DNA from: a virus
DNA: 64,000 bases
Virus record (IMG/VR): IMGVR_UViG_3300045988_183115
Strand: one strand, 5' to 3'
Shown: piece after piece, positions 2,997-57,492 of the stretch
Position numbering within the stretch: position 1 is the first letter of the stretch
How the letters are laid out: each line of letters opens with the position of its first letter
Translations under genes and position numbers: made by a program
Notes under the pieces: model-generated
The model's database searches: none
What the model was told of the DNA's origin: nothing
The model's input: the letters and a program-made list of their open reading frames with translations, nothing else

Positions 2997-3014
2997 TTTT
3001 TCTGACATATATAT
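2997..3014 (+). promoter_or_regulatory. conserved promoter-like motif, CTGACAT variant
   Basis: TTTTTCTGACATATATAT lies 45 nt upstream of the ATG at 3047. Confidence 0.45.
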
Positions 3015-3046
3015 TACATCAATTAATTAAAGGAGGCGTATTCAAA

Positions 3047-3247
3047 ATGATAGAACATATTGTTTTTAATGTGCAGGCAAATAAAACTTTATCTGATACT
3101 AATGAATCATTCTATGGATGCTGGACAAAAGGGCATACATATGAATGTATAGCATTTGGCGATTTCGTATCAGTAAGAAATGATTCTGGGATGTATACAC
3201 AATTTACAAAAGAAGCTTTCGAAAAATTTAAAGATAAAATTGCGTAA
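3047..3247 (+). CDS. hypothetical small protein
   Basis: 66-aa ORF with AAAGGAGG RBS. Confidence 0.55.
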   Translation: MIEHIVFNVQANKTLSDTNESFYGCWTKGHTYECIAFGDFVSVRNDSGMYTQFTKEAFEKFKDKIA

Positions 3248-3263
3248 TATATAAGGAGGATTT

Positions 3264-4550
3264 ATGAAACAGGCAGATATAAATACAATACCAAATCATG
3301 AATATTTGGAACTTAATTATGTTGCAGAAACAGCTACAGGTAAAGGTAATAATCAACAGATTATTATGCAGGTTAATGCCAATAATAAGAATGTTTTTGA
3401 TGTTACTGAAGGTAGAATTGGAATCAGGATAGGAAGGAACAGGCCAAGGACATATTCACTTCCTATGACTAATTGGGATTCTTTTTATTTGTCTAAGGTA
3501 AATAGAGGTTGGTTGCTTACAAAGACTCAAAAAATGGAGAAAAAAAAGATTACAAAAAAAGGTTTAAGTTTTAATGGCGGTACATATGCACAGACTGGAA
3601 TTTTCTCTGTTGATTCTATTATAACAAAACTGCTTTCATACGCTAATAAGGTTATTTCAGATAATTATTCAACTTCAGTTGAAGATATTTCAGATGAGAT
3701 GCTTGAATATGGTAATTCGATTTTGACTGAATTAGCTAAGAACCATGATTCTATGTCAATTGCAGAGTTTAATAATAAATTAAAAGTATTATATGCTGCA
3801 ATTCCTAGAAGAATGGATAATTTATCTAAACATTTGGCTAAAAGAAAGATTGAATTTGTTGATATCATTGACAAAGAGCAGGAACTGTTTGATATTGTGT
3901 ATTCTCAGGTAAGATCTAATAGTAATTTAGCTAAATATAACACTATGCCAACAGTTCTTCAGGCCTATGGACTTGAATGGAGACCTGTATCTGACGAAGA
4001 AGAGACTAAAATCAAGAAGCTTATGGGAGAAAATGCAAAGCAATATAAAAATGCTTGGAGAATCATTAATAAAAAGACCGAAAAGGCTTTCAATGAATAT
4101 TGTGCTAAAGAAAATTTAAGTGATGAAAATAATGGAATATCTCATTTATTTCATGGTTCAAGATCAGAAAACTTCTGGTCCATTATAACTAATGGTTTAA
4201 CAATAAATCCAGTTGGAGTTGTAACTAATGGAAAGATGTTTGGATTAGGTACATATTTTGCTAATAAGGCAAAAAAATCGATGGGATATACTTCAAGCTC
4301 CGGTTCTTATTGGACTCATGGTAGTGAAGCAATTGGATATTTAGGCATTTTCAAAGTGGCTACTGGTAAAACATATGATGTAACATCTGCTGAAAGTGAT
4401 TTAACTTATAATGTTTTACAACAGAGATGTCCTGGCGCTCATTGTACTTTTGCTCATGCAGGCCATAGTTTATGTAATGATGAAATTATTGTATATCAGG
4501 ATCAGCAAAGTACTATAGAATATTTTGTTGAATTTACAGCAGCTCAGTAA
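3264..4550 (+). CDS. PARP-like ADP-ribosyltransferase (WGR-like N-terminal domain + helical region + PARP catalytic domain)
   Basis: C-terminal half carries the PARP H-Y-E signature in the canonical order: HGSRSENFWSIITNGL, then GLGTYFANKAKKS, then EIIVYQ. N-terminus has a WGR-like segment (TEGRIGIRIGRN). RBS is AAGGAGGA. Confidence 0.7.
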   Translation: MKQADINTIPNHEYLELNYVAETATGKGNNQQIIMQVNANNKNVFDVTEGRIGIRIGRNRPRTYSLPMTNWDSFYLSKVNRGWLLTKTQKMEKKKITKKGLSFNGGTYAQTGIFSVDSIITKLLSYANKVISDNYSTSVEDISDEMLEYGNSILTELAKNHDSMSIAEFNNKLKVLYAAIPRRMDNLSKHLAKRKIEFVDIIDKEQELFDIVYSQVRSNSNLAKYNTMPTVLQAYGLEWRPVSDEEETKIKKLMGENAKQYKNAWRIINKKTEKAFNEYCAKENLSDENNGISHLFHGSRSENFWSIITNGLTINPVGVVTNGKMFGLGTYFANKAKKSMGYTSSSGSYWTHGSEAIGYLGIFKVATGKTYDVTSAESDLTYNVLQQRCPGAHCTFAHAGHSLCNDEIIVYQDQQSTIEYFVEFTAAQ

Positions 4551-4562
4551 GGAGGAAATTTT

Positions 4563-4706
4563 ATGAAAAAGAAAAATATATATGAATTAAAACGAGCAGG
4601 TATATGCTGCGAAGAAGAAATGAAAAAAGTATATAGATTTTCTCCATTGCCTCCTGAGGCAATCACTTTTATAAATAATTTACATCAGAAAAAAATTAAT
4701 AAATAA
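4563..4706 (+). CDS. hypothetical small protein (47 aa)
   Basis: ATG follows AAGGAGGAAATTTT. Short, so low confidence. Confidence 0.35.
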   Translation: MKKKNIYELKRAGICCEEEMKKVYRFSPLPPEAITFINNLHQKKINK

Positions 4707-4871
4707 TGATTGTGTAAAGCGTAGAATTAATTATTCTACGCTTTATTTATTTTAATTCTGTCATATTATTATTAGCTAAAAATAAAGGAGCTAATTATAT
4801 TTTTTATAAAAAGGGTTCAGCGGTAACGGTAAGCATGATCTTACTTAGTCACGTTGAACTCTTTTTTTAAT

Positions 4872-4889
4872 ATTATCTGTCATATATAT
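4872..4889 (+). promoter_or_regulatory. conserved promoter-like motif
   Basis: TTATCTGTCATATATAT lies ~42 nt upstream of the ATG at 4925. Confidence 0.55.
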
Positions 4890-4924
4890 ATTAATATAAC
4901 TTTTTTTGACTATAAGGAGGACCT

Positions 4925-6139
4925 ATGGATAGAGAACAAGAAAGATTAAATACATCACTTTTATGTGGTTGGTCAGTAATAACAATAACACTATTAGGCA
5001 TTTATTTTGGTGAAATGTTAAAACATGCTATATCACCACCATATTTTGCAATATTTGCTATATTAATTAGTATCCCGAATTTAACAGGGTGGTTGGTTTT
5101 TATTTATAATAAAAACTGGCTATTTTTAAAATATTTTGTAACATTCTCGTTTTTAATAATGTATACATTTACCTTATTTACAGGAAATACTGTTTTATGT
5201 TTTACTTATATATTCCCAATTATCCTGCTTTTAATTTTATATTATGATCCAACTTTAATTATAGTAACCGGGTTATTTTCGACAGTGTTGAATATTACAG
5301 CAATATTTATTAAGACATATAATAAAATTGATAAATCAGGTGGCAAAGACATGGAGATTCAACTTGCAATAATTATTTTATGCTTTGCAGCAGCATATAT
5401 TGTTTCAAAGTTTTATAAAAGAAATACAGACCTAAATTTGCAAAATACACAAACAATAATAAATCAAATAGAACAAATTAATAAAATGTCTCTCCAAACA
5501 GTTACAACTATAGCAAATATTATCGATGCCAGAGATAATTACACCAAAGGCCATTCAACCAGAGTAGCAGATTATACAGCCTTATTAGCATATAAATTAG
5601 GAATGAATAAAAATGAGATTGAAGATATTCATTCAATAGCACTATTGCATGATATAGGAAAACTAGGAATTCCGGATAGCATATTAAACAAACCAGGAAA
5701 ATTAACAAATGAAGAGTACCAAGTAATGAAGAACCACACAGTAATAGGCGGAAATATCTTAAAAGATATGTCAATGCTTAAGGACATTGATTTAGGAGCA
5801 AAATATCATCATGAAAGATATGACGGAAAAGGATACCCAGATGGCTTAAAGGGAGAACAAATACCTTATATTGCAAGAATTATTTCTGTAGCAGATGCCT
5901 TTGACGCAATGACAAGTGACAGAGTATATAGGAAACATTTAGATTCAATAATTGTAGTTAATGAGCTTGAAAAGGGTAAAGGTACTCAATTTGATCCTGT
6001 AATTGCAGATGCTATGTTAAGTTTAATTAAATCTGAAAAAATTAAAATGAATTATAATGCTTTACTTGAAGAAATAGATTTAGCAGAAAATTTAAACGAA
6101 TTGTATCCAGAGAAAGAATTTTATGATGCAACAGAGTAA
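4925..6139 (+). CDS. membrane-anchored HD-GYP domain phosphodiesterase (cyclic-di-GMP / cyclic dinucleotide hydrolase family)
   Basis: About 5 N-terminal TM helices. HD domain motifs are KGHSTRVADYT and IALLHDIGKLGIP. The HHERYDGKGYPDGL stretch is the HD-GYP signature. Confidence 0.85.
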   Translation: MDREQERLNTSLLCGWSVITITLLGIYFGEMLKHAISPPYFAIFAILISIPNLTGWLVFIYNKNWLFLKYFVTFSFLIMYTFTLFTGNTVLCFTYIFPIILLLILYYDPTLIIVTGLFSTVLNITAIFIKTYNKIDKSGGKDMEIQLAIIILCFAAAYIVSKFYKRNTDLNLQNTQTIINQIEQINKMSLQTVTTIANIIDARDNYTKGHSTRVADYTALLAYKLGMNKNEIEDIHSIALLHDIGKLGIPDSILNKPGKLTNEEYQVMKNHTVIGGNILKDMSMLKDIDLGAKYHHERYDGKGYPDGLKGEQIPYIARIISVADAFDAMTSDRVYRKHLDSIIVVNELEKGKGTQFDPVIADAMLSLIKSEKIKMNYNALLEEIDLAENLNELYPEKEFYDATE

Positions 6140-6279
6140 TGTTAGATTTAATAAAAAAAATGATAATAACTTTGTAAAATGCTCATATATTAGAAACAAA
6201 AAGATGCAATATGGCAGAAAGGAGAATTGCTTCTTCCCTTATCTGAAGATAAGGGATTCAGTGATTAATAAATATTATT

Positions 6280-7413
6280 ATGAAAACAATAGAAAAAATT
6301 AAAATACAAGATAATACAATAGAGCATACAGAAAAACAAACCAGTTTATACGCATATTTGTATAATAAATTTCAAAATAAAATAATGGCTATTAACCTTC
6401 TTATAATAATCACAATATTTGTTTTTGAATTATTATTTATACCAATACATATAATAATAGAAAAACAAACAATAAATATATTATCTTATATTATATTGAA
6501 TGTATTTACACCTACTACATCTAATTTAATAATATGGTTTACCGGTAGACAAATCATAAGAAAATATCAAGATAATATTATACCAGAAATATATGAAGCC
6601 ATGCCTTTGTATATTTTAACTTTAATTATAGTGGTTTCAATTATCATTCATTATAATTATCCGGTATTATATACATTAATAGCCTGCCCAATTTTTATGT
6701 GTATTGTATATGGTAGTAACAAGGTTAATTGGCAATTATTTTTGATAAGTCAATTTGAAATTATTACAATTTCATTATCATCAATCTCTGAATTAAATAA
6801 GTTACCATCAAATTATTTAATATATATGTTTTTATCATGTATCATAACAATATTTGCATATATTTATTCGAGACTTGTTATTAAATATGAGAAAGAAAAA
6901 GAACTTAAACTGGTTTTATCTGAAAATAGAAATGCGCAATTATTAAAAGAAATTTCACAAGATGGATTAACTCGATTAGATAATTATAGGTCTCTTTTTA
7001 ATACAACAAAGAAATGGATATCATATAAGAAAAAACTTTATTTTTGTATAATAGATATAGATGATTTTAAATCAGTTAACGATACATATGGACATGAATT
7101 TGGAAATACTGTTTTAATTAATTTAGCTAAGGAACTTCAAAATATTAACCAATCAAATATTTTTGTCGCCAGATATGGAGGTGAAGAATTCGGAATATTA
7201 TTTGCAGATTATGAATATACTGAGGCGTATAATATAATTAACGATATCAGAATTAAATTCAACAATATTAAATATGAGAATATTCCGCAGCAATTTACTT
7301 TCTCTGGAGGAATAACAGAATATAAAAAAAATAATACCGTTCATGATTTATTTGATGCAGCAGATAAAAATTTATATAAAGCTAAAAGAACAGGCAAAAA
7401 TAAAATTATGTAA
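6280..7413 (+). CDS. membrane-anchored GGDEF-domain diguanylate cyclase
   Basis: About 6 N-terminal TM helices. GGDEF domain is DIDDFKSVNDTYGHEFGN followed by the active-site RYGGEEFGILF (GGEEF). No promoter motif of its own, so probably co-transcribed with the HD-GYP gene. Confidence 0.85.
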   Translation: MKTIEKIKIQDNTIEHTEKQTSLYAYLYNKFQNKIMAINLLIIITIFVFELLFIPIHIIIEKQTINILSYIILNVFTPTTSNLIIWFTGRQIIRKYQDNIIPEIYEAMPLYILTLIIVVSIIIHYNYPVLYTLIACPIFMCIVYGSNKVNWQLFLISQFEIITISLSSISELNKLPSNYLIYMFLSCIITIFAYIYSRLVIKYEKEKELKLVLSENRNAQLLKEISQDGLTRLDNYRSLFNTTKKWISYKKKLYFCIIDIDDFKSVNDTYGHEFGNTVLINLAKELQNINQSNIFVARYGGEEFGILFADYEYTEAYNIINDIRIKFNNIKYENIPQQFTFSGGITEYKKNNTVHDLFDAADKNLYKAKRTGKNKIM

Positions 7414-7426
7414 AAATTTGCAGTCA

Positions 7427-7444
7427 AAAATCTGTCATATAATA
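7427..7444 (+). promoter_or_regulatory. conserved promoter-like motif with no ORF downstream
   Basis: AAATCTGTCATATAAT. The next 200 nt contain no credible ORF and end in a terminator hairpin. Confidence 0.45.
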
Positions 7445-7645
7445 ATTAAATCAATATTGTATTATAATTTACAATGTGATAAAATATTGTCGGTATATAT
7501 TAGGCATACATATATGCCTCCTCAAAGACTAGCACTTTTGTTAAAGCCGGTAATTTTGTTGTAAAAATACACTTTAATAGAATTTTACAATTCTACTAGC
7601 AACTTTGATTAAAGCTCTCACCTTAATGGTGGGAGCTTTTTGTTA
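7445..7645 (+). ncRNA. candidate small non-coding RNA (promoter-to-terminator unit without ORF)
   Basis: Bounded by the motif at 7432 and the terminator at 7617..7645. Contains the perfect palindrome GGCATACATATATGCC (7504..7519). No tRNA-like features. Confidence 0.3.
7617..7645 (+). terminator. rho-independent terminator
   Basis: GCTCTCACCTTAATGGTGGGAGC followed by TTTTTG. Confidence 0.55.
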
Positions 7646-7662
7646 TTCTCTGTCATATTTAT
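7645..7662 (+). promoter_or_regulatory. conserved promoter-like motif
   Basis: TTCTCTGTCATATTTAT lies ~36 nt upstream of the ATG at 7692. Confidence 0.55.
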
Positions 7663-7691
7663 TGTGTAAATAAATATAAAGGAGAAAAATT

Positions 7692-10025
7692 ATGAGTTCT
7701 AAAAAACAACCACTTTATAATGATGATAAAAATATTCCACTAAAAAAACAGAAAAATCATCTTTTAACCATATTTAAAATTTTTATATTGATTATTATGA
7801 TAGTCATATTATTATCTTTAATATCATTATCAGTATTTTATATTAAATTTTACAGTAAATTCAAATTGGCACAGGAAAATGCATATGAGTCATTACAAAA
7901 TATGAACCAAAATGAATTTAATAAAGAACTGAATACATATTTTTATTATGATGATGGCACATTAATGGCAGCTAATATTAACGGCTCTTATGAATATGTT
8001 AATATCAGCGATGTCAGTGATTATATAATACAAGGATATATTGCTGTGGAAGATAAGAATTTCTATATTCATAAAGGTATTGATGCTAAAGCATTGTTAC
8101 GAGCTTCTTTGGCTTATATAAAGAATAAAGGGAAAATAACTCAGGGCGGCAGTACAATCACACAACAAGTTGTAAAAAATATTGTTATAAAAAATTCAGA
8201 CAAAACAATAGATAGAAAACTTACTGAAATGATAGCATCACTTGAAATGGAAAAGTCATATTCTAAAGAACAAATACTTGAAATGTATTTAAACTCTAAT
8301 TTCTACGGCAGCAATTGTTACGGAATTCAGGCAGCTTGTAAATATTATTTTGGATGTGATGCATCTGATGTAACAATATCTCAGGCCGCAATGTTAATAG
8401 GTATTTCAAATGCCCCTACAAAATATAATCCTGAAACAAATTATGAATTAGCAATATGTAAAAGAAATCAAGTCCTTAATACAATGTATAATCAGAAAAT
8501 AATTACAGAAAAACAATACAATGAAGCATTAGAAGATCCTCTTGATTTAATTTTATATAAAGAAACATCTGATTTACCAACATCTTATGAATTTTCATAT
8601 ACACTTAAATGTTCTATTGAATATCTTATGGAAATAAATGGATTTAATTTTAAATACCTTTTTGATTCTTCAGAAGATGAGCAAGATTATATTAATCAAT
8701 ATAATAAAATATACTCTAAGTACAAAGAAGAAATATTAACTGGAGGATACAGGATATATACTTCAATAGATAAAGATAAGCAGCTTGAGCTATTACAAAT
8801 TTCAAAAAATGTTTTATCACAATATGATAACAGCTTATCCGAGGATGGGCGGCATCTTCTTCAAACATCATCCATGTGTATTGATAATGAAACTGGATAT
8901 GTTAGAGCAATTATAGGTGGACAAGAAGATAATGAATATATAAATAGAGCATATCAATCTCCTAGACAACCAGGCTCTTCCATTAAACCAATATTAGATT
9001 ATGCTCCGGCTTTTGATATTTTAGACTATCATCCATCATCTATGATTTTGGATTCTCCACTTGAGGGTAAATATCAGCCTAAAAATCATGATGGATATTA
9101 CAGAGGCAATATTTCAGTAAGAACAGCTTTATTACAATCAGTCAATACAACGGCTGTTAAAACATTAATGAATGTTGGAATAAATAATTGTTTAGAGTAT
9201 TTAAATAAAATGCACTTTTATAATATTTCATATGAAGATAATAATAATGCTGCAATTGCCATAGGTGGTTTTACAAATGGTGTAACAGTAGAAAACATGA
9301 CTAAAGCATACAATGCATTAGCTAATAATGGTAAATACAATAATAATACATGCATCAAACATATGTTGCGTCAAAATGAAGAAATATATCAAAATAAAGA
9401 AGATATTCAAGTATATAAAAAAGGCACCGCTTATATGATGACAGATTGTTTAATTTCAAATTTTACAGAAGGATACGTCAAAAATTATCAAATAGATAAT
9501 CAGATTTGTGCAGGAAAAACTGGAACAACGAATGATAACAAGGACTCTTGGCTATGTGCATATACACCATATTACACAACATGTATATGGACCGGATATG
9601 ATATTCCTAAAAATTTTGATAATGGTTCAGCAATATGTGGAGAAATATGGAAGCAGTTTAATGAATATTTGCACCAGAATTTAGATAATAAGGAATTTGA
9701 GAAACCTGAAACTATTTATGAGCATTATATTGACTGGGAAGGGAAAAAATGTAATTATAATTCTGGTAAAAAAGATTTTTTTCAAATCGATTTTCCTAAT
9801 TATGAAAAGGCCAGTTTTTGTTACAAAAAAGCATATGATGCTTTAAAAGAAGCTGAGAATACTAATATTTCAGATTATAAAACTGCTAATACTGTTATAA
9901 AAAGTCTTGATGATGTTATTATCGATAAGAACGCATTAACTGATCAACAAGAAATTGATGCTATAAATAAATACTGGGATGAAATATATAATAATATTTT
10001 AATAAAAAGACAACAGTTTGGATAA
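7692..10025 (+). CDS. bifunctional class A penicillin-binding protein (GT51 transglycosylase + transpeptidase) with N-terminal TM anchor
   Basis: GT51 motifs are [20 protein letters not shown] and [10 protein letters not shown]. Transpeptidase motifs are SSIK (SxxK), SVN (SxN) and KTGTT (KTG). Confidence 0.85.
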
Positions 10026-10043: not shown

Positions 10044-10061
10044 TTTTTCTGTCATATATTT
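10044..10061 (+). promoter_or_regulatory. conserved promoter-like motif
   Basis: TTTTTTCTGTCATATATT lies ~56 nt upstream of the ATG at 10111. Confidence 0.55.
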
Positions 10062-10110
10062 TTTATCAATAAATTTAATGGAGAATAACTCCAAGAAGGG
10101 AGTCTTATAT

Positions 10111-11156: not shown

Positions 11157-11188
11157 AAAAACAGTCATCATTTGATGGCTGTTTTTTA
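11157..11188 (+). terminator. rho-independent terminator
   Basis: AACAGTCATCATTTGATGGCTGTTTTTTAT. Confidence 0.55.
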
Positions 11189-11210: not shown

Positions 11211-11228
11211 TTTAACTGTCATATATTT
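11211..11228 (+). promoter_or_regulatory. conserved promoter-like motif
   Basis: TTTAACTGTCATATATTT lies ~46 nt upstream of 11268. Confidence 0.55.
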
Positions 11229-11267
11229 ATTAATTAAGATTTTAATTTAAGGAGTTAAATAGATATT

Positions 11268-11948: not shown

Positions 11949-11966
11949 TATTTCTGTCATTCAATA
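11949..11966 (+). promoter_or_regulatory. conserved promoter-like motif
   Basis: ATATTTCTGTCATTCAAT lies ~38 nt upstream of 11998. Confidence 0.5.
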
Positions 11967-11997
11967 TATATGATAACAAAGCCAAAGGAGAAAAATT

Positions 11998-13128: not shown

Positions 13129-13149
13129 GATGCAAATTAATGATTTAAA

Positions 13150-13177
13150 ACAGGGTATATATTGCCCTGTTTTTTAT
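13150..13177 (+). terminator. rho-independent terminator
   Basis: AACAGGGTATATATTGCCCTGTTTTTTA. Confidence 0.7.
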
Positions 13178-13178: not shown

Positions 13179-13196
13179 TTGTTCTGTCATATATAT
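13179..13196 (+). promoter_or_regulatory. conserved promoter-like motif
   Basis: TTTGTTCTGTCATATATATT lies ~65 nt upstream of 13255. Confidence 0.55.
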
Positions 13197-13254
13197 TATA
13201 TAGAATTAATTTTCTATCAAACAATATAAGATTAATATATTTTGGAGGATTTAT

Positions 13255-15217: not shown

Positions 15218-15242
15218 TACTTTACTTTATCAAACTATTGTA

Positions 15243-15279
15243 AAAGTCTTTATGTTTAATCGCATAAAGACTTTTTTTC
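15243..15279 (+). terminator. rho-independent terminator
   Basis: AAAGTCTTTATGTTTAATCGCATAAAGACTTTTTTT. Confidence 0.7.
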
Positions 15280-15293
15280 TCTGTCATATATAT
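15276..15293 (+). promoter_or_regulatory. conserved promoter-like motif
   Basis: TTTTCTCTGTCATATATAT lies ~36 nt upstream of 15323. Confidence 0.55.
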
Positions 15294-15322
15294 AATGAAC
15301 AATATATTAATGGAGAAACATT

Positions 15323-16066: not shown

Positions 16067-16098
16067 GCTTCTCTTTTTTATGTAAGAAAAATCCACTA

Positions 16099-16116
16099 TA
16101 AATCTGTCATATTTTA
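16099..16116 (+). promoter_or_regulatory. conserved promoter-like motif
   Basis: ATAAATCTGTCATATTTT. The 56-nt element and then the UvrD gene follow. Confidence 0.55.
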
Positions 16117-16128
16117 AATAAAAGATTT

Positions 16129-16184
16129 TATCGAAGAATAGCAAGAAAACTACATCCGACAATAGTCAGTTGCGAGTAGTTCAT
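16129..16184 (+). repeat. 56-nt hairpin element, copy A
   Basis: TATCGAAGAATAGCAAGAAAACTACATCCGACAATAGTCAGTTGCGAGTAGTTCAT sits in the 5' UTR of the 16217 gene. Confidence 0.7.
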
Positions 16185-16216
16185 AAATTTAATAATGGAA
16201 AGGATTGTAATAATTT

Positions 16217-38433: not shown

Positions 38434-38434
38434 T

Positions 38435-43011: not shown

Positions 43012-43024
43012 CTGTCATGTATTA
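43007..43024 (+). promoter_or_regulatory. conserved promoter-like motif
   Basis: TTTTTTCTGTCATGTATT lies ~36 nt upstream of 43054. Confidence 0.55.
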
Positions 43025-43053
43025 ATTATAAAATTTATAAAGGAGGAAATTTA

Positions 43054-46570: not shown

Positions 46571-46601
46571 AAAACGCATGTCATTATGATGTGCGTTTTT
46601 T
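46571..46601 (+). terminator. rho-independent terminator after dnaE exon 2
   Basis: AACGCATGTCATTATGATGTGCGTTTTTT. Confidence 0.6.
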
Positions 46602-46614
46602 CTGTCATATTTCT
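46597..46614 (+). promoter_or_regulatory. conserved promoter-like motif
   Basis: TTTTTTCTGTCATATTTCT lies ~40 nt upstream of 46648. Confidence 0.55.
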
Positions 46615-46647
46615 TTTAAATTATAATAAATAAAGGAGAACAATATT

Positions 46648-47544: not shown

Positions 47545-47555
47545 AAGAATGATAT

Positions 47556-47611
47556 TATCGCAATTAAGCAAAAAACCCCAACCGACAATAGCCGGTTGTG
47601 GGTAGTTTAAT
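47556..47611 (+). repeat. 56-nt hairpin element, copy E (diverged)
   Basis: TATCGCAATTAAGCAAAAAACCCCAACCGACAATAGCCGGTTGTGGGTAGTTTAAT. The palindrome is CCGGCTATTGTCGG-type with compensatory changes. Confidence 0.65.
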
Positions 47612-48627: not shown

Positions 48628-48660
48628 AACTGGTTACTATTAGTAGCCAGTTTTTTTATT
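48628..48660 (+). terminator. rho-independent terminator
   Basis: AACTGGTTACTATTAGTAGCCAGTTTTTTTAT. Confidence 0.75.
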
Positions 48661-48676
48661 TTTCTGTCATTGTATT
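48659..48676 (+). promoter_or_regulatory. conserved promoter-like motif
   Basis: TTTTTCTGTCATTGTATT lies ~37 nt upstream of 48707. Confidence 0.55.
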
Positions 48677-48706
48677 ATTATAAAATTTAAAAAGGAGAAT
48701 AAAATT

Positions 48707-49165: not shown

Positions 49166-49197
49166 AAAGAAAGGAATTTTATGAAAACTTTAAATAT

Positions 49198-49253
49198 TAT
49201 CGAAGAATTGTAAGAAAACTCCATCCGACAATAGTCGGTTGTGAGTAGTTCAT
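49198..49253 (+). repeat. 56-nt hairpin element, copy F (consensus-like)
   Basis: TATCGAAGAATTGTAAGAAAACTCCATCCGACAATAGTCGGTTGTGAGTAGTTCAT is near-identical to copy D. Confidence 0.75.
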
Positions 49254-49276
49254 GCAAATACAGCAATTAATATAAT

Positions 49277-49294
49277 TGAAAGTGTCATATATGA
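49277..49294 (+). promoter_or_regulatory. promoter-like motif, GTGTCAT variant
   Basis: GAAAGTGTCATATATGAT lies ~48 nt upstream of 49336. Confidence 0.35.
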
Positions 49295-49335
49295 TAATTC
49301 TGATGAAAATAATAACAACTAAAGGAGAATAAGAC

Positions 49336-49630: not shown

Positions 49631-49660
49631 AAGCGGGAGACTTATGTTTCCTGCTTTTTT
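49631..49660 (+). terminator. rho-independent terminator
   Basis: AAGCGGGAGACTTATGTTTCCTGCTTTTTTT. Confidence 0.6.
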
Positions 49661-49674
49661 TCTGTCATAAATAT
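49657..49674 (+). promoter_or_regulatory. conserved promoter-like motif
   Basis: TTTTTTCTGTCATAAATAT lies ~34 nt upstream of 49702. Confidence 0.55.
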
Positions 49675-49701
49675 ATTAAAAATTATAAAGGAGAAAAATT
49701 A

Positions 49702-51032: not shown

Positions 51033-51070
51033 ATAACAAGTACCTATTAATGGGTACTTGTTATTTTATT
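51033..51070 (+). terminator. rho-independent terminator
   Basis: AACAAGTACCTATTAATGGGTACTTGTTATTTTATTTTT. Confidence 0.8.
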
Positions 51071-51086
51071 TTTCTGTCATTTATTT
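51069..51086 (+). promoter_or_regulatory. conserved promoter-like motif
   Basis: TTTTTCTGTCATTTATTT lies ~40 nt upstream of 51120. Confidence 0.55.
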
Positions 51087-51119
51087 ATTATAACAATAAA
51101 TGGAAGGAGAGTAAAAAAT

Positions 51120-52043: not shown

Positions 52044-52061
52044 ATTTTCTGTCATAAATTA
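52044..52061 (+). promoter_or_regulatory. conserved promoter-like motif
   Basis: TTTTCTGTCATAAATTAT lies ~38 nt upstream of 52093. Confidence 0.55.
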
Positions 52062-52092
52062 TATAGTTATGAATTGAAAGGAGAAATTTAAA

Positions 52093-53778
52093 ATGAATAA
52101 AACAGGTATTGAAGATTTAATAGCAATGAATGCTTTATATCGTCCTGGCCCTGAAAAGTTTATACCTGATTTCATAGAAGGTAAAAAGGATGCATCTAAG
52201 ATTAAATATTTATGTCCTCAATTAGAGCCAATTCTGTCAACTACTTATGGACAGATAGTTTATCAGGAACAGGTAATGCAGATTGTTCGTGATTTAGCAG
52301 GATATACATGGGGGCGTTCTGATTTAGTCCGTAGAGCTATGTCAAAAAAACATCAGGATGAAATTGATGCTGAAAGACACACTTTTGTATATGGTAATGC
52401 TGATACTAAAAAAGAAAATGAAGCATTAGTACCAGGATGTATTGCAAATGGAATACCAGAAGAAATTGCTCATAAAATCTGGGATGCGATGGTTGACTTT
52501 GCTAAGTATGCGTTTAATAAGTCACATGCCACTGCTTATGCTGTTACATCATATTGGACAGCTTTTCTTAAGTATTATTATCCGGCTTATTATCTTACAA
52601 ATGTAATAAATCATACTGATAAGATTGATGAAGTCGCTGATGATATTAGTGATGCCCTTGATTTTGGAGTAAAGGTATTGCCTCCGGACATTAATGCTTC
52701 AAATTTACATTGTGATGTTGTAGATGGGAACATTTTGTATGGTCTGAGTAATATTAAGAATGTTGGATCAGAAGCAGCTAAAATTATTGAAGATAGAAAT
52801 GTTAATGGAGAATATTCTGATATTAAGGATTTTATCAAACGAACAAATATTAATGCAGAAGCATTAAGTTCCTTAATTAAAGCAGGTGCTTTCGATTGCC
52901 TTGGTTATACAAGAACAATGATATCATTAGATATGATTTGTATGAAAGAAATTCAGGATACAATTAAGAAAATCAGAGAGAAGAGTAAGTTTATTGAAAA
53001 CGCAAGTAAAGTTATTGAATTTGTGGAAGATTATATTGATCTTGATGAGTTTAAGGAAAGAATTTCAGAAGAAAATATTTCCTTTCAAGTTACTTCAAAA
53101 AAGATGCCAACTAAGGATTCCATAATTAAACGTATCAATTCAGCTAAGACAGTTATAGAAAGCTTAGAAGATGATCTTGAAAATATAGATATTGATTATG
53201 TAGAAGATGATTTAGGTCAGATTCTAAATGATGAAAAAGAAGTGTTAGGTGTTTATATTACAGGGCATCCAATTGATGAGTATAATATTTATACAGATCC
53301 CATTTCTGATATTTCAACAGAAGTTAACGATGTATCTGGTATAATTAAAAATCTTGTTGTAAGAAAGGATAGAAATGGATACGAATGGGTAACTTTTGAG
53401 GTAGAAGATAAAACAGGTTCTATTAATGGTGTATGTTTTTCTAAAGATTATGCAAATATTAGAGACTTACTTGTTAATGATGCTAAATTATGTTTATCAG
53501 GAAAAATTCAAGTAGATGATTTTAGATCTTCAGATGACGAAACTGTATATCAGATTATTGTTAAGTCTGTTAAACCTTTAAAGAAAAATAAGTCTTCATA
53601 CAGATTTATATGTACTGTTTCCGAAGTAAACGATGTTCTTGATTCTATTAATGAATATCTGGTAGATAATGACGGGGATTATTTATATTGGCTTGATTCA
53701 ACAACCGGAATTGAACATTTATGCAAGAAATTCATTAACCCTGATATGTCAGCACCTTCAATAGTACGCAAATGCTAA
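52093..53778 (+). CDS. dnaE: DNA polymerase III alpha (DnaE-type), C-terminal piece (fingers, beta-clamp-binding, OB-fold region), separately expressed
   Basis: EDLIAMNALYRPGPEKFIPDFIEGKKD continues E. coli DnaE (FEDMIALVALFRPGPLQ) directly after the end of exon 2. Further matches include YQEQVMQIVRDLAGYTWGRSDLVRRAMSKK. The C-terminal OB-like part includes VVRKDRNGYEWVTFEVED. Confidence 0.8.
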   Translation: MNKTGIEDLIAMNALYRPGPEKFIPDFIEGKKDASKIKYLCPQLEPILSTTYGQIVYQEQVMQIVRDLAGYTWGRSDLVRRAMSKKHQDEIDAERHTFVYGNADTKKENEALVPGCIANGIPEEIAHKIWDAMVDFAKYAFNKSHATAYAVTSYWTAFLKYYYPAYYLTNVINHTDKIDEVADDISDALDFGVKVLPPDINASNLHCDVVDGNILYGLSNIKNVGSEAAKIIEDRNVNGEYSDIKDFIKRTNINAEALSSLIKAGAFDCLGYTRTMISLDMICMKEIQDTIKKIREKSKFIENASKVIEFVEDYIDLDEFKERISEENISFQVTSKKMPTKDSIIKRINSAKTVIESLEDDLENIDIDYVEDDLGQILNDEKEVLGVYITGHPIDEYNIYTDPISDISTEVNDVSGIIKNLVVRKDRNGYEWVTFEVEDKTGSINGVCFSKDYANIRDLLVNDAKLCLSGKIQVDDFRSSDDETVYQIIVKSVKPLKKNKSSYRFICTVSEVNDVLDSINEYLVDNDGDYLYWLDSTTGIEHLCKKFINPDMSAPSIVRKC

Positions 53779-53800: not shown

Positions 53801-53829
53801 ACCGCTGTTTATTGCAGCGGTATTTTTTT
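53801..53829 (+). terminator. rho-independent terminator
   Basis: ACCGCTGTTTATTGCAGCGGTATTTTTTT. Confidence 0.85.
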
Positions 53830-53848
53830 ATGTAAAGATTTTTAAAAT

Positions 53849-53866
53849 TGTATCTGTCATATATAT
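53849..53866 (+). promoter_or_regulatory. conserved promoter-like motif heading the CPBP-unknown-sigma operon
   Basis: ATTGTATCTGTCATATATAT lies ~30 nt upstream of 53891. Confidence 0.55.
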
Positions 53867-53890
53867 ATTAGAAAGGTTGGAGGAAAATAT

Positions 53891-54802
53891 ATGATACTTA
53901 GTAACAATAACAGTAATATTAAGGAATTAAGAAATAAAAAAAATAAGCATGATTTAAATTCTTATATGGATTTTATGGTGAAAAACAAAATGAAAAGTAA
54001 TTCTTTCTTTTCAAAATCAAAACAGTATATAAAGATTTTTATTCCATTTATTATTTCTGTTTTTATAATTTTATTTTCAATGTTTATTGCAACATTTATA
54101 GACAGTCTATTAAATATGTATATGAATGATGCAGGAGGAATTTCAACTAAAATAGATTATGAAGGATTTCGATTAATTTACACAATATCAACATATACAT
54201 TAATGTTTGTTATGTGCCTTATTTGTATAAAAAGCTCATTTTACAATTATAAAAAAGATTTGTTTATGAAAAATAAATTAGTAGTAAATTGGAATTTTGC
54301 ATTTTGTTTCATATTAATTTCTGTAATATTGCAGCTTATTTCAGGAATTCAAATGCATTTTGTAAATGTATCAGATATTGATTATGGAAGTTTAGGAATA
54401 AAAACAATTATATCTACAATAATAGCAACTTTTGTGGCACCTATTATTGAGGAATTGACTTTTAGATATATAATTTATGGCTATGCATATAAAGCAAGCA
54501 ACAATAAATTATGTGCAAATATAATCCAAGCAGTTTTATTTGGAATAATTCATTTTAATTTTATTTTATTCCCTATATATGCTTTTGGCGGATATTTGTT
54601 AGGTGCTGTAAGAGATAAATATGGTATTAAACTTAGCAGCTTATATCATATTCTAATAAACTGTGTGGCATTAATACCATTTACGTTTTTTATAACAAAT
54701 ATATATTTACAGGTATGCATTTTAATAGTCTGCATAATGAGTTTAATTTATTTTGTAATTAAGTGTTTTGAAAATATCAATATAGAAATTAAGGAGCAAT
54801 AA
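53891..54802 (+). CDS. CPBP (CAAX protease / Abi) family intramembrane metalloprotease, second copy
   Basis: Multi-TM protein with IIEELTFRYIIYG (EExxxR) and FGIIHFN (HxxxN). Paralogous to 36129..36995. Confidence 0.75.
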   Translation: MILSNNNSNIKELRNKKNKHDLNSYMDFMVKNKMKSNSFFSKSKQYIKIFIPFIISVFIILFSMFIATFIDSLLNMYMNDAGGISTKIDYEGFRLIYTISTYTLMFVMCLICIKSSFYNYKKDLFMKNKLVVNWNFAFCFILISVILQLISGIQMHFVNVSDIDYGSLGIKTIISTIIATFVAPIIEELTFRYIIYGYAYKASNNKLCANIIQAVLFGIIHFNFILFPIYAFGGYLLGAVRDKYGIKLSSLYHILINCVALIPFTFFITNIYLQVCILIVCIMSLIYFVIKCFENINIEIKEQ

Positions 54803-54805
54803 TTT

Positions 54806-55201
54806 ATGGAAACAAATATGAATAATGAATTAAAAAATAAGTCTATAAGTGATATCCTTGAAGCTTCTTCAACGGATTTATATGAATGGTATTTAATTAA
54901 TTTTAAGAAAGAAATTCCTAGATCAGATGAAATAGATTTATTGGAAATAGGAAATTTATTGAGTGAAGTAGGAAATTATTTTACCTATTTTTCCTCAATG
55001 CATTCTATTTTAGATTCAATGGTAAAAGAAATGAAATTACACAAAGAGTCTTCAGATAAATGTAAAGAGCTTATGATTAAACGAGATATATTAGGAACCT
55101 TTGAAGAGCAATCTAAATTTACATATAATGCAATTAGTAGAATATGTACAATGAAAATAGAAGCAAATAATGAATTAAAAATGCTAGGACATCAATGTTA
55201 A
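54806..55201 (+). CDS. hypothetical protein between CPBP protease and sigma factor
   Basis: 131-aa ORF starting 4 nt after the upstream stop. No recognizable motif. Confidence 0.55.
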   Translation: METNMNNELKNKSISDILEASSTDLYEWYLINFKKEIPRSDEIDLLEIGNLLSEVGNYFTYFSSMHSILDSMVKEMKLHKESSDKCKELMIKRDILGTFEEQSKFTYNAISRICTMKIEANNELKMLGHQC

Positions 55202-55213
55202 GAGGAGATTTTT

Positions 55214-56242
55214 ATGGCAGATAAGAATTTATTATTAAATAAAAAAAACAATAAAGATGAATATATTGATGAATTATTTGATACAAATAAACCAATAGAA
55301 AACATAAATATTTTATCAGAGGATAATTATACCGATATTTTAAATGATAAAGAGATTTTAAATGAAAAAGAGAAACTATTATTAGAAAATAATATAACTT
55401 ATTATATTAAATCATTCGCTGATTATCCGGTTTTATCCAAAGATGAAACTCTTAAATTATTTGAAGAGATAAAAAAACATCCTAAAAAGAAAAAAGAAAT
55501 AACCGAAAAATTGATTTTATCTAATATGCGTTTAGTCATCAGTATTGCTAAAGCTGTTACAGCTAAAACGCAAAGTTTTGAAATGGATGATTTATGTCAG
55601 GCCGGTATTTTCGGGTTATACAGAGCTATACAAATGTTTGATTATAAATTAGGATATGCATTTTCAACTTATGCAACTCATTGGATTAGACAGAGTATAT
55701 ATAGAGAATTAGCCAATTATGATTTATTAGTTAGATTCCCTGTACATGTAAGAGAACAGGATTCTTTTGTTAAGACTACATTTGTGGATTTAACTAATAA
55801 ACTTCAAAGAAAACCTACAATTGATGAATTATATGATGTAGTAAAACAAAGATATCCTCTTTTAACTAAAGAAATGCTTGTGCATATTCAGAGTTTTAAT
55901 GAATTGGTTTCATTAGATGCACCTATTCAAAGTGATGAAGGCCATGACGATTCATGTTTGGCTGATTATATAGAAGCTCCTGAACCTAAAGTTGAAGATA
56001 CGATTATTCAAAAAGAAATGAAAGAACTGCTTTGGAAAGAAGTTGAAGATTGTCTCACTCCTAGAGAATTATATGTAATTAAGGGTAGAATGGGATATGG
56101 CTCAAAAGTTAAAACTTTACAAGATATAGGTACTGAATGGAATGTATCCAGAGAACGAATCAGACAGATTGAATCAAAAGCAATAAAAAAGATTAGAGTT
56201 CGTTTCAGACGGAAAGGATATAGTATACAATCTTTTATGTAA
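55214..56242 (+). CDS. sigma-70 family RNA polymerase sigma factor
   Basis: Region 2 is NMRLVISIAKAV...DLCQAGIFGLYRAIQMFDYKLGYAFSTYATHWIRQSIYREL. Region 4 HTH is LQDIGTEWNVSRERIRQIESKAIKKIR. Confidence 0.85.
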   Translation: MADKNLLLNKKNNKDEYIDELFDTNKPIENINILSEDNYTDILNDKEILNEKEKLLLENNITYYIKSFADYPVLSKDETLKLFEEIKKHPKKKKEITEKLILSNMRLVISIAKAVTAKTQSFEMDDLCQAGIFGLYRAIQMFDYKLGYAFSTYATHWIRQSIYRELANYDLLVRFPVHVREQDSFVKTTFVDLTNKLQRKPTIDELYDVVKQRYPLLTKEMLVHIQSFNELVSLDAPIQSDEGHDDSCLADYIEAPEPKVEDTIIQKEMKELLWKEVEDCLTPRELYVIKGRMGYGSKVKTLQDIGTEWNVSRERIRQIESKAIKKIRVRFRRKGYSIQSFM

Positions 56243-57071
56243 TATATAAATAAAATGCAGTTATCAATAGGTAGCTGTATTTTTTTTATGATTACACTTC
56301 CTTTAAGTGTAATATGTCATACACCTTTTTTAGAACCTTTTTATTATTTTCTTTTCCATTGATACGCTTTTTATTATTAAAATATAAAAATTAGAGCCTT
56401 ATATAATACATTTGATTATTCCTTAATAGCGTTTTAAGACTTAATATAATAACCGCCAGAATATTATTAAGGATTAAAAGCGTATAACTATTATTGTCAT
56501 ATCCTTATACAATATCATTTATCAGCTTAATACATTTTGTGTTTATTTCCCTGGTAATTCCTTACCTGTCTCTAGCAAGCACTTCATTTATCCCAATTAA
56601 TGCCTTTAATACACTAATAAATAATATAATTCCCTCATATATAATATATGATAATTACAAAAATTATGATTACTAGATTCCTGTAAATCTATTCTTCGCC
56701 CTGCAAATGCCTTAGTAAGCCCAATAATCCCATTTCTATCTCCAATAGCTGCATTCTTATACACTAATTCTTTCTTATTTGCTCTTAGATCTATTTCCTT
56801 TACTCTATCATTCCTATATATGTTTCCAGTAATTCCATTAATTAACTTTAGTAAATAATAATTATATCCCATTAATCAGTTATATTTATTTTTCTCACTG
56901 ATCATACAGTCTATTGTACCCAATTAATCCATATATAATTGCTAATATTACCAATTATATGTTATCAAATTAACATTTTTTATCTCTTAAATCAGCATAT
57001 GATAACTACATCATGGTATTATTCTGACACATATAAGGCATTTTATTGGCTATGCAACGGATAATACATTA

Positions 57072-57328
57072 CTATATATTGTTATCATTATTACATTTAT
57101 GTATCAAATATTTAGCTATATATTGTTAATTTTATTACACAAATTTTTCTATTCTATAACATAATGTTGTTATTTTTAATGTATATTAAATCATATTTTA
57201 TATCTATATATTGTTATTATTTTTGTATCTTAGCTATATTTTAATAAATCTTAAATAACTATATATTGTTAATAAAGTTAACATATTAAACTAATATATA
57301 ACAATAAACGTACAATATATTGTTATTA
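57072..57328 (+). repeat. iteron-like direct repeats (5 copies of CTATATATTGTTAWT) within a 1.3-kb gene-free AT-rich region
   Basis: Copies at 57072, 57116, 57204, 57259 and 57316, plus a partial inverted copy near 57291. Spacing 44-88 bp. No ORF with an RBS in 56243..57523. Confidence 0.6.
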
Positions 57329-57474
57329 TTTTTTACAAGTGAAGGCATAGTATACCCAATAAAGTGCTTAGAAAAACACAAAAACGGGATATTTTAATAA
57401 ATAAAAGGCATTTACATTTAGTTGCTGTCTTATTTTAACACACATCAATTATTTTATGTAAAATAATAATTCAT

Positions 57475-57492
57475 TTTTTCTGTCATATTAAA
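57475..57492 (+). promoter_or_regulatory. conserved promoter-like motif
   Basis: TTTTTTCTGTCATATTAAA lies ~38 nt upstream of 57524. Confidence 0.55.

Follow-up and report, generated by a model that had tools for sequence, protein, structure and literature searches.

In the 64,000-nucleotide stretch of DNA analysed here (IMG/VR virus record IMGVR_UViG_3300045988_183115; "the window" means this whole stretch), a short motif built on the heptamer CTGTCAT recurs upstream of most transcription units, and a divergent RpoD-like sigma-70 family factor of 342 amino acids, the candidate reader of that motif, is encoded on the + strand at 55214-56242. We consider it probable that a giant mobile element uses the motif as its core promoter, of an extended -10, -35-independent type, and that the element's own RpoD-derived sigma factor reads it. 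We put forward more tentatively the further proposal that the two make up an orthogonal system, in which an RpoD-derived sigma respecified at -12 (through residue 440, W433 being replaced too) would act together with TCTGTCATAT promoters standing before most of the terminator-insulated units.

Distribution of the motif

The window has a GC content of ~28%, its genes lie nearly all on the + strand, and its ribosome-binding sites are strong ones of the AAGGAG type. CTGTCAT occurs in it 43 times (36 on the + strand and 7 on the - strand) against an expectation of 6.83 +/- 2.49, and none of 100 shuffled sequences reached 43; a 16-mer form of the motif gave 52 matches with three mismatches or fewer, where 10.6 were expected. 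The intergenic DNA, which amounts to 10.3 kb (16% of the window), holds 33 of the 36 + strand copies, a 51-fold enrichment over coding DNA, and CTGTCAT is the top enriched intergenic 7-mer, ranking above the Shine-Dalgarno words. All seven - strand copies, in contrast, lie within coding regions and lack the flanks of the motif. An earlier, sequence-only reading of this DNA had held that an equal motif frequency in coding regions and on the - strand would refute the promoter reading, and by these counts the frequencies are plainly unequal. The almost exclusively intergenic placement also ruled out a skewed oligomer of the KOPS or Chi kind.

Together with four one-base variants, CTGACAT (3002), ATGTCAT (29019), CAGTCAT (30537) and GTGTCAT (49282), the CTGTCAT sites form a set of 38, close to the "about 37 copies" of the sequence-only reading, whose description of the motif was correct in substance as to both counts and placement. 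A position weight matrix built from the 38 sites, applied at 14 bits or more, found 35 sites on the + strand and 1 on the - strand; Markov shuffles, scored at the laxer threshold of 10 bits, gave 0-4 sites per strand. The distance from the motif to the start codon is 37-55 nt in 29 of the 34 sites with an assigned start and 62-138 nt in the remainder; four of the 38 sites have no obvious open reading frame (ORF) assigned to them. A strict terminator, defined as a stem of at least 5 pairs with at least 3 GC pairs and a T-tail within 70 nt upstream, precedes 19 of the 38 sites compared with 1.8% of random positions, and imperfect hairpins stand upstream of several more. Half of the sites by the strict definition, rather than most of them, thus come directly after a terminator as had been claimed. 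The stem usually stops 5-12 nt 5' of the motif, the T-tail of the terminator doubling as the T-run of the motif, and in the first 20 kb terminators were enriched (17 against 4.7 expected). That the motif behaves like a promoter, being intergenic, locked in orientation, set at a fixed distance 5' of the Shine-Dalgarno sequence and ATG, and placed after terminators, is well supported by these patterns.

Architecture of the motif

Counting columns from the T that follows the first C of CTGTCAT, the 38 sites have T1 in 37, G2 in 38, C4 in 38, A5 in 38, T6 in 38, A7 in 33, T8 in 32, T15 in 32 and A16 in 28. The C before T1 is kept in 36 sites and is itself preceded by T in 34; T stands at column +10 in 28 sites, and a purine at column +16 in 35. 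The heptamer as a whole is all but invariant. From this pattern we infer the register T-17 C-16 T-15 G-14 T-13 C-12 A-11 T-10 A-9 T-8 a/t-7 T-6. In it, TG at -15/-14 lies one base 5' of a hexamer with A at -11 (T in 37 of 38, G in 38 of 38 and A in 38 of 38), as in extended -10 promoters, and the canonical T-12 and T-7 are not kept, the base at -12 being C in all 38 sites. The transcription start is predicted to be the conserved purine that lies 16 nt beyond the C of CTGTCAT and 7 nt beyond the hexamer CATATa; T at -1 in 32 of 38 sites and a purine at the predicted +1 in 35 of 38 are consistent with a start at about that distance. The use of CTGTCA itself as the -10 hexamer was dropped, as it would place T at -11 although the residues of the A-11 pocket are conserved in the sigma.

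TTGACA-like -35 hexamers at a spacing of 16-18 bp were not enriched in either register (matches of at least 4/6 in 5 of the 38 sites, against 16% of controls), and a canonical -35 element was therefore dropped. The would-be -35 position is taken by terminator stems of unrelated sequence, which fits the independence from a -35 that marks the extended -10 class. As its bases read, the motif is an extended -10 element in which C replaces T at -12, with C at -16 and without a -35 hexamer. The sequence-only reading had found it unlike the host-type consensus; this holds for the absent -35, whereas the -10 region is a recognisable derivative of the standard extended -10. CTGTTAT and TTTCTTATATAT variants were not found in promoter context within the window, and a literature search for the motif returned only unrelated primer or eukaryotic matches.

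The sigma factor and its operon

In the protein encoded at 55214-56242, domain models detect regions 2 and 4 (PF04542 with 53.7 bits against a cut-off of 24, and PF04545 with 41.6 bits against 24.1), and it matches phrog_351, "RNA polymerase sigma factor," at 7.8e-54. Its nearest named relatives are RpoD proteins of Clostridia, at 36-40% identity, and its nearest solved structures are SigA/RpoD. The NCBIfam RpoD models gave 172-180 bits, below their cut-offs of 354-572, a Pfam scan found no PF03979, PF00140 or PF04539, unlike nearly all RpoD matches, and regions 1.1, 1.2 and 3 were undetectable. Judged by alignment and domain content, the protein is a diverged RpoD derivative and not a housekeeping sigma factor.

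Where primary sigmas have FSTYATWWIRQAITR...IRIPVHMVE, the aligned segment of the window sigma is FSTYATHWIRQSIYR...VRFPVHVRE, and in place of their region 2.3/2.4 motif TYATWWIRQAITR it has TYATHWIRQSIYR. With Escherichia coli sigma70 numbering fixed by the pattern R436, Q437, R441, R451, H455 and E458, the changes read W433H, A438S and T440Y, and Q437, R441, R451, H455 and E458 are kept. According to a review (PMC2613000), sigma70 has two residues, Q437 and T440, that face the major groove at -12; the substitutions Q437H and T440I, and no others, suppress a change from T:A to C:G at that position; and the G:C pair at -14, within the TG motif, is recognised by H455 and E458. The chief sequence-level argument for linking the protein to the motif lies in this correspondence: the TG-reading residues are kept and the motif keeps TG, and the -12-reading residue is changed and the motif is changed at -12. 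The sigma at 55214-56242 is thus most likely the reader of the motif; the sequence-only reading had named it as the candidate, which the residue pattern and the co-occurrence of sigma and motif in relatives make credible.

Two genes co-transcribed with the sigma gene precede it at 53891-55201 on the + strand, one for an Rce1-like (CAAX/CPBP) membrane protease (53891-54802) and the other for a conserved soluble protein of 131 amino acids (54806-55201). A role for this pair in control of the sigma, as a regulated-proteolysis or anti-sigma module, is speculative. The motif precedes the sigma operon in every lineage, implying positive autoregulation.

Relatives of the sigma and their promoters

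A profile search of 1.84 billion representatives found four more members of the family above the general RpoD plateau (P0003, P0241, P0242 and P0243). Wherever enough DNA was available, the five lineages have in common the order DNA polymerase III alpha C-terminal piece, CAAX-type protease, ~130-amino-acid protein and sigma, the syntenic CAAX/CPBP protease and ~130-amino-acid genes being found in L123, L225 and L226, and TCTGTCATAT promoters are present in every lineage with usable flanking DNA. Residue 440 of the five sigma proteins is Y, I, I, R and Q, never T, and H455 and E458 are kept in all five.

The P0003 sigma is 51% identical to that of the window and has N433 and I440, the latter being the classical suppressor residue. 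In the 21 kb seen of the P0003-type element only the CTGTCAT form is used; there, a T-run, CTGTCAT and AT stand before orthologous genes in flanks that have wholly diverged, with A at +16 in 6 of 7 sites, and as sequence conservation this is a phylogenetic footprint. The P0241-type contig (W433, I440) has two TCTGTCATAT sites and two TCTGTTAT sites, the latter of the canonical TGn-TATATA form, and the P0242-type contigs (H433, R440) have TCTGTCATAT sites together with four TTTTTCTTATATATT sites. The sibling promoters of L225 are TCTGTTATATAT, again canonical TGn-TATATA. Those of L226 and L228 are TTTTTCTTATATATT; when they are aligned by their TTTTTCT prefix, the canonical TATATT falls on the positions of CATATa, which gives the proposed register independent support. 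None of the sibling forms was found in promoter context within the window. The covariation of sigma residues with the -12 base across these lineages is suggestive.

No close relative of the sigma was found in GenBank phages, PLSDB plasmids or GTDB species genomes, and the JGI metagenomes yielded just identical sigma copies or unrelated sigmas. Two alignment-based IMG/VR scans returned the known contigs and unrelated canonical sigmas such as L127 and L234, and an exact IMG/VR scan for TTTTTCTGTCATAT gave single chance matches only. As a negative control we used 75 IMG/VR contigs (L150-L224; 80-245 kb, GC 32-35%) that share, at 65-88% identity, a cytidylyltransferase-like protein of 205 amino acids encoded 3' of the window; no such sigma was seen in the regions examined, and the motif is not used there. 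The distribution of the cytidylyltransferase-like gene suggests that it is exchanged among large gut elements.

The element that carries the motif

IMG/VR fragments of 95-103 kb, listed as viral, are 97-98% identical over the sigma, and assemblies of faecal metagenomes contain the same proteins on contigs that measure 218, 322, 327 and 463 kb. Of the element, whose size is at least 218-463 kb, we examined ~110 kb. Directly 5' of the window are genes for a VirD4/TraG-type coupling protein of 982 amino acids (PF02534, 1.8e-62), a NERD protein and, on the - strand, a Mob_Pre relaxase of the MobV type. The coupling-protein gene, on the + strand, has the motif 33 nt before its ATG; upstream of the relaxase gene the motif stands on the - strand, at a distance of 44 nt from the ATG (L131 -7037). 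This indicates that the + strand bias of the window reflects gene orientation only. The earlier statement that the motif occurs only on the + strand consequently holds for promoter context in the window and fails as a general rule. Likewise, the motif ends at about 57.5 kb, as had been stated, only as far as the window itself is concerned: the next site lies ~124 nt past the window's end (L128 11504), and more follow for at least 30 kb. The flanking loci hold at least 14 further sites, for a total of ~52 in ~110 kb.

Among the genes of the element are those for a bifunctional penicillin-binding protein (PBP), RecA, RecJ, two UvrD-like helicases, a DnaG-type primase, a split DNA polymerase III alpha, the sigma, and GGDEF and HD-GYP proteins; the relative L226 has a T2SSE/VirB11-like ATPase. 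No capsid, portal, terminase or tail gene was found among the Pfam- or PHROG-annotated proteins of the ~110 kb, in which many small ORFs are unannotated. The coupling protein, the relaxase, iteron-like repeats and contigs of 218-463 kb are the marks of a conjugative or mobilisable plasmid-like element (its circularity and extrachromosomal state being putative), and from its gene content the element looks like a giant low-GC plasmid-like mobile element of the human gut. The "single phage-specific regulon" of the sequence-only reading is not supported, given contigs of 218-463 kb, conjugation genes with the same motif and no phage structural gene seen among the annotated proteins of ~110 kb. With its sigma encoded on the element and a distinct consensus before the element's genes, this would be a mobile-element sigma system, in which the motif looks like a general, element-wide promoter rather than the mark of one temporal class.

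An insertion sequence (IS) of the IS200/IS605 type occupies window positions 1-1600 (TnpB at 260-1516; GC ~37%). It is present in the window and in L133 (6409) and absent from L131 (8340), and it sits directly 3' of a CTGTCAT promoter that, in the uninterrupted copy, drives a gene for 238 amino acids (window 1693). The insertion is recent; the closest named relatives of its TnpB are from Hespellia and Lachnospiraceae, and they hint at a host among the Lachnospiraceae or Clostridia.

A model and its alternatives

In the mechanism that we favour, the element sigma would direct host core RNA polymerase to the motif sites, and transcription would start at the conserved purine and give 5' leaders of ~26-32 nt with a strong AAGGAG ribosome-binding site. 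The T-run would often be the U-tail of the preceding intrinsic terminator, with most genes forming their own terminator-to-terminator unit. The sigma would retain recognition of TG through H455/E458 and its A-11 pocket, and its W433H and T440Y changes, at residues facing -12, fit the C fixed at that position. Because the sigma operon has the same motif, its expression would be self-reinforcing. Expression of the element would be largely independent of promoter recognition by the host and portable between hosts, and the sibling lineages with canonical or intermediate promoters (TCTGTTATAT and TCTTATATATT) would record drift in specificity.

Several observations weigh against this mechanism. T at -7 is normally required by sigma70-type factors, and here that position is A in 22 of 38 sites and T in 13. 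The RERIRQ recognition helix of region 4.2 is unchanged in the window sigma, though there is no -35 element for it to read. Among the 256 closest RpoD-like sigmas, W433 is found in 91% and T440 in 72%, which makes changes at these residues unusual and not unique. The covariation between sigma residue and -12 base is unclean and involves few promoters, P0242 and P0241 each using some sites with C and others with T at -12. Should the sigma operon rely on its own product, the first synthesis of sigma would call for a bootstrap. Another sigma or a polymerase could be encoded in the rest of the element. Finally, the promoters were compared with the standard sigma70 consensus, and the preferences of the host may differ from it.

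The alternative that stands up best to the evidence, although we think it unlikely, is that the host housekeeping SigA holoenzyme reads the motif as an extended -10 with a tolerated C-12, leaving the element sigma with a smaller regulon or a redundant role. The motif keeps TG at -15/-14, A-11 and T-10; the canonical sibling promoters of relatives (TCTGTTATATAT in L225 and TCTTATATATT in L226) are plausibly SigA-readable; the AT-rich downstream DNA offers alternative TATATT-like hexamers; and the sigma operon needs a first transcriber. A canonical SigA would not, however, be expected to give C-12 in 38 of 38 sites and C-16 in 36 of 38, both non-consensus, in a genome of 28% GC. In addition, sigma70 requires suppressor changes before it can use a promoter with T-to-C at -12 (PMC2613000), the alteration in the element's sigma falls precisely on the -12-facing position, and the window has no CTGTTAT or TTTCTTATATAT variants in promoter context, as noted above.

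It is improbable, in our view, that CTGTCA is instead bound by an activator that the element encodes, or serves as the promoter for a non-sigma polymerase whose gene lies outside the DNA examined, with TATAT as a plain -10 and the register shifted by 2. TATaTw at positions 6-11 is indeed -10-like, the examination covered between a quarter and half of the element, and the presence of a second box (ATGTAA at N18) indicates that some promoters may be acted on by further factors. Yet the motif is asymmetric and non-palindromic, unlike typical sites of dimeric regulators, the shifted register reads TC for TG and places the purine at -2 rather than at +1, and the L226 sibling promoters put TATATT in the first register and not in the second. 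No polymerase candidate was found among the proteins examined: a YonO-like single-subunit polymerase was considered as the reader and rejected, the 844-amino-acid protein having no DFDGD-type motif and no Pfam match. T7-type promoters, moreover, conserve far more than the ~11 bp conserved here.

Still less probable is reading by a host mother-cell sporulation sigma of the SigE/SigK type. The -10 box of Clostridium difficile SigK is CATATAAT (PMC3789822), which the inferred -10 CATATa/T resembles, and TnpB points to Lachnospiraceae/Clostridia, many of whose members form spores. SigK and SigE nevertheless need AC or ATA -35 elements, none of which is conserved here, and the invariant TCTG extension is foreign to their consensus; to limit replication, repair and conjugation genes to the mother cell would be biologically implausible for a gene set that is not sporulation-related, and the element has a matching sigma of its own. 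Least credible of all is a role of the motif in RNA, as a processing site, terminator-associated element or leader signal, for despite its tight distance to the Shine-Dalgarno sequence and ATG and its abutment on terminator U-tails, terminators end transcripts just 5' of it and the downstream genes need re-initiation, half of the sites lack a strict terminator and keep motif and spacing all the same, leaders of 113-138 nt show the motif untied from the Shine-Dalgarno sequence, and the base pattern matches DNA-level sigma contacts position by position.

If promoter recognition by the element's own sigma is borne out, it would offer a clear example from nature of a mobile element, exceeding most phages in size, that encodes a housekeeping-type sigma of its own and rewrites the most conserved promoter position to match, and it would tie the classical genetics of T440I and -12C to natural evolution. 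It would also supply a testable rule for host-independent control of ~50 or more transcription units by a giant element and, for work in Firmicutes, an orthogonal pair of sigma and promoter that is ready to use. In metagenomes, where pieces of this element family are now filed as viral, the motif is a cheap means of recognising such fragments and of annotating their transcription units.

Sites along the window

All 38 sites are on the + strand; matrix scores are given in bits (leave-one-out at the first site) and distances run from the motif to the start codon. The first site, tttttCTGACATatatattaca (2997-3018; 19.2 bits), has the CTGACAT variant and A at the predicted +1 and lies 45 nt before the ATG at 3047 of a 66-amino-acid ORF, which the PARP-like gene at 3264 follows. 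The site at 4753-4774 (22.5 bits), after a terminator at 4714-4746 and with no ORF assigned, is in tandem with that at 4872-4893 (25.2 bits), 48 nt from the HD-GYP gene at 4925, behind which comes the GGDEF gene at 6280. Gene 6280 had been said to follow its neighbour immediately; instead a 140-nt gap without motif or T-tailed terminator separates them. Two sites precede the PBP gene, one at 7427-7448 (17.7 bits; 260 nt) with an ATGTAA box at N18 and one at 7645-7666 (18.7 bits), which follows a terminator at 7611-7639 and is 42 nt from the bifunctional PBP gene at 7692. The region 3264-10025 is a signalling and envelope cluster unusual for a mobile element, with its PARP-like gene (3264), HD-GYP phosphodiesterase (4925), GGDEF cyclase (6280) and bifunctional class A PBP (7692).

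Next come the sites at 10044-10065 (30.1 bits), 62 nt from the ATG at 10111; 11211-11232 (24.0 bits), after a terminator at 11157-11186 and 52 nt from the ATG at 11268; 11949-11970 (14.4 bits), 44 nt from the ATG at 11998 of the operon 11998/12226/12769; 13179-13200 (23.0 bits), after a terminator at 13147-13173 and 71 nt from the ATG at 13255, with gene 14597 following; and 15276-15297 (26.6 bits), after a terminator at 15242-15275 and 42 nt from the ATG at 15323. The UvrD gene at 16217 has a site with an ATGTAA box at 16099-16120 (21.3 bits) and a 113-nt leader that contains a 57-nt hairpin element, described below. An ATGCAA box accompanies the site at 19196-19217 (20.2 bits), which follows a terminator at 19148-19171 and lies 43 nt from the ATG at 19244. 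The sites at 21367-21388 (24.2 bits; 45 nt from the ATG at 21417), 21859-21880 (19.2 bits; 45 nt from the ATG at 21909 of the RecJ-like gene) and 23742-23763 (19.5 bits; 44 nt from the ATG at 23791) come after these, the last two behind terminators. The recA gene at 24373 is preceded at 47 nt by a site with an ATGTAA box (24321-24342), whose flank is A-rich and not T-rich and which owes its score of -2.6 bits to that flank, the core CTGTCATATAT being perfect.

Between the site at 25487-25508 (17.7 bits) and the gene for 844 amino acids at 25953, a distance of 461 nt, no ORF is assigned. The site at 28539-28560 (18.5 bits) follows a terminator and is 46 nt from the ATG at 28590; the ATGTCAT variant at 29014-29035 (15.9 bits) is followed by a copy of the 57-nt hairpin element; and the site at 29215-29236 (21.1 bits) is 43 nt from the ATG at 29263, with the DnaG-type primase gene at 29532 beyond. 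The CAGTCAT variant at 30532-30553 (17.2 bits), 44 nt from the ATG at 30581, and the site with an ATGTAA box at 31081-31102 (17.6 bits), with a 138-nt leader including the 57-nt element before the flotillin-like gene at 31224, both come after terminators. The UvrD-like gene at 33024 has a site 41 nt upstream at 32978-32999 (26.8 bits). At 36010-36031 a site with weak flanks (3.7 bits) follows a terminator, 114 nt from the ATG at 36129 of a CAAX-protease gene, and that at 36961-36982 (21.5 bits), 43 nt from the DNA methylase gene at 37009, lies within the last 30 nt of the preceding coding sequence. The site at 38236-38257 (29.5 bits) follows a terminator and is 43 nt from the ATG at 38284, ahead of the guanylate-kinase-like gene at 38506; the site at 39131-39152 (22.7 bits), with an ATGTAA box, is 55 nt from a small ORF at 39191.

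The remaining sites are at 40555-40576 (20.8 bits), 49 nt from the ATG at 40609; 41740-41761 (25.8 bits), after a terminator and 46 nt from the ATG at 41791; 43007-43028 (23.1 bits), after a terminator and 42 nt from the first DNA polymerase III alpha piece (43054), where the motif is kept at the orthologous gene in L123 (2561) though the flanks differ; 46597-46618 (27.1 bits), 46 nt from the ATG at 46648; and 48659-48680 (17.3 bits), after a terminator and 43 nt from the ATG at 48707. The weakest candidate, of doubtful membership, is the GTGTCAT variant without a T-run at 49277-49298 (-3.5 bits), 54 nt from the ATG at 49336. It is followed by the sites at 49657-49678 (25.5 bits), 40 nt from the ATG at 49702 of a 5'-3' exonuclease gene; 51069-51090 (26.4 bits), after a terminator and 46 nt from the ATG at 51120; and 52044-52065 (21.1 bits), after a terminator and 44 nt from the third DNA polymerase III alpha piece (52093), with an orthologous site in L123 (6822). 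The site of the CAAX-protease/131-amino-acid/sigma operon, 37 nt upstream of it and after a terminator, is at 53849-53870 (23.6 bits) and has an ATGTAA box, as does the last site, at 57475-57496 (26.3 bits), which lies 3' of an iteron-like array and 44 nt from the DUF5688 gene at 57524.

The box just mentioned, a T-run with ATGTAA (once ATGCAA), stands exactly 18 nt 5' of CTGTCAT in 8 of the 38 promoters (7405-7415, 16077-16087, 19174-19184, 24299-24309, 31059-31069, 39109-39119, 53827-53837 and 57453-57463), and the four exact copies of TTTATGTAAAA in the window are every one such a box. In every lineage the sigma-operon promoter has a related box, a T-run with RTG, at 17-18 nt. The box stands at about -40 to -35, farther upstream than a normal -35 would be; a reading of ATGTAA as a -35 box was dropped, since the spacer to the -10 hexamer would be 22 bp, which is too long.

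Other features of the region

An element of ~57 nt (TTATCGAAGAATAGCAAGAAAACTCCATCCGACAATAGTCGGTTGTGAGTAGTTCAT) is repeated, always on the + strand, in 5' leaders or between genes, with copies at ~2420-2480, 16130-16190, 29060-29120, 31130-31190, 38430-38490, 47550-47610 and 49195-49255 of the window and at ~17029-17093 of L128; among the genes that it precedes are those for UvrD, flotillin, the guanylate-kinase-like protein and RlaP, and the primase operon. Its fold is an extended hairpin whose 14 pairs include 3 that show compensatory changes, and it may be a cis-regulatory or processing RNA. No Rfam family matched this leader element or the intron-like region described next.

DNA polymerase III alpha is encoded in three pieces (43054-44895, 45785-46543 and 52093-53778), the first and third with motif promoters of their own. 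An ORF for an HNH/NUMOD4 homing endonuclease (45104-45622) lies in a structured, intron-like spacer between the first and second pieces, and the second and third are separated by ~5.5 kb with some nine genes, a gap that in the relative L123 measures ~750 nt.

Five direct repeats of CTATATATTGTTA, at 57072, 57116, 57204, 57259 and 57313 (spacings of 44, 88, 55 and 54 nt, roughly multiples of 11), make up the iteron-like array at 57072-57325, which is set in a gene-poor gap of 1.28 kb (56243-57523) with inverted GC skew and is possibly an origin of replication, a site for partition or an operator. At 58446-59997, a HEARO/omega RNA (Rfam RF02033, 109.8 bits) lies directly 5' of a gene with RRXRR and HNH domains (IscB type), the whole being inserted between the DUF5688 gene and a block of small genes. 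In this small-gene block, where CTGTCAT sites are few, a second recurrent upstream motif, (G)TAGTAATTnTACACTATTTAaRTATAAA, is found (window 60947-60989; L149 8767, 14059 and 16443); it may represent a second promoter class, perhaps read by a host sigma. On the - strand of L131 at ~8323, a perfect CTGTCAT motif is followed by AAAGGAGG and by ATG-TAG, a start codon directly before a stop, and may be the promoter of an antisense or non-coding transcript, or a remnant.

Comparison with known systems

Extended -10 promoters, whose Gram-positive "-16 region" form is TRTGnTATAAT, share with the motif TG one base 5' of the hexamer, A-11, T-10, T-17, a lack of need for a -35 and, on the protein side, the kept H455/E458. 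They differ from it in that here -12 is C in 38 of 38 sites, -16 is C and not a purine in 36 of 38, T replaces A at -8, and T-7 is weak. The E. coli sigma70 mutants Q437H and T440I offer the nearest parallel for the protein, the natural sigmas here being changed at 440 (Y in the window; I, I, R and Q in relatives) and having promoters with C-12. In place of laboratory point mutants, however, we see a diverged natural family with W433H/N/S and further changes, with Q437 kept and with a specificity that is predicted.

Phage sigmas with private promoters, such as SPO1 gp28 and gp34 and T4 gp55, define temporal classes of genes in lytic phages and have diverged very far from RpoD. Like them, the window sigma would be a mobile-element factor that redirects host core polymerase to a distinct consensus before many of the element's genes; unlike in those systems, no evidence of a phage was seen in the ~110 kb examined here, and the motif stands before conjugation genes. 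SigN (ZpdN) of the Bacillus subtilis plasmid pBS32 is encoded by the plasmid, activates its own promoter and controls a regulon there to which genes for replication and nucleotide metabolism belong (PMC6751061). It is weakly ECF-like (extracytoplasmic function), uses a bipartite -35/-10 promoter of the TTTACG ... GATATA type, and is triggered by DNA damage via LexA to express part of an 84-kb plasmid (PMC6751061). The present sigma is by contrast RpoD-like, and its promoter has only a -10 and stands before most of the transcription units seen.

Among giant elements, the Inocles of oral Streptococcus are plasmid-like, measure 245-395 kb with a GC content of 24-32%, have genes mostly of unknown function, and conserve a bifunctional transglycosylase/transpeptidase, a sigma annotated as RpoS, DNA polymerase III alpha and RecJ (PMC12340149, in which promoters are not mentioned). 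The resemblance is one of gene content, size and GC only, compared by description and not by sequence, and the window element differs in coming from faecal metagenomes and in having an IS that points to Lachnospiraceae rather than Streptococcus. Identity with the Hodor megaplasmid was rejected on GC content (~28% in the window versus 44.6-47.1%; PMC12934698). Mobile-element sigmas with private promoters are thus already known, from phages and from SigN of pBS32. What appears to be new, as read from these sequences, is the combination of a sigma derived from RpoD, a promoter without need of a -35 whose departure from the standard falls on just the base pair that the changed residue contacts, the use of that promoter before most of the units seen, and a giant plasmid-like carrier.

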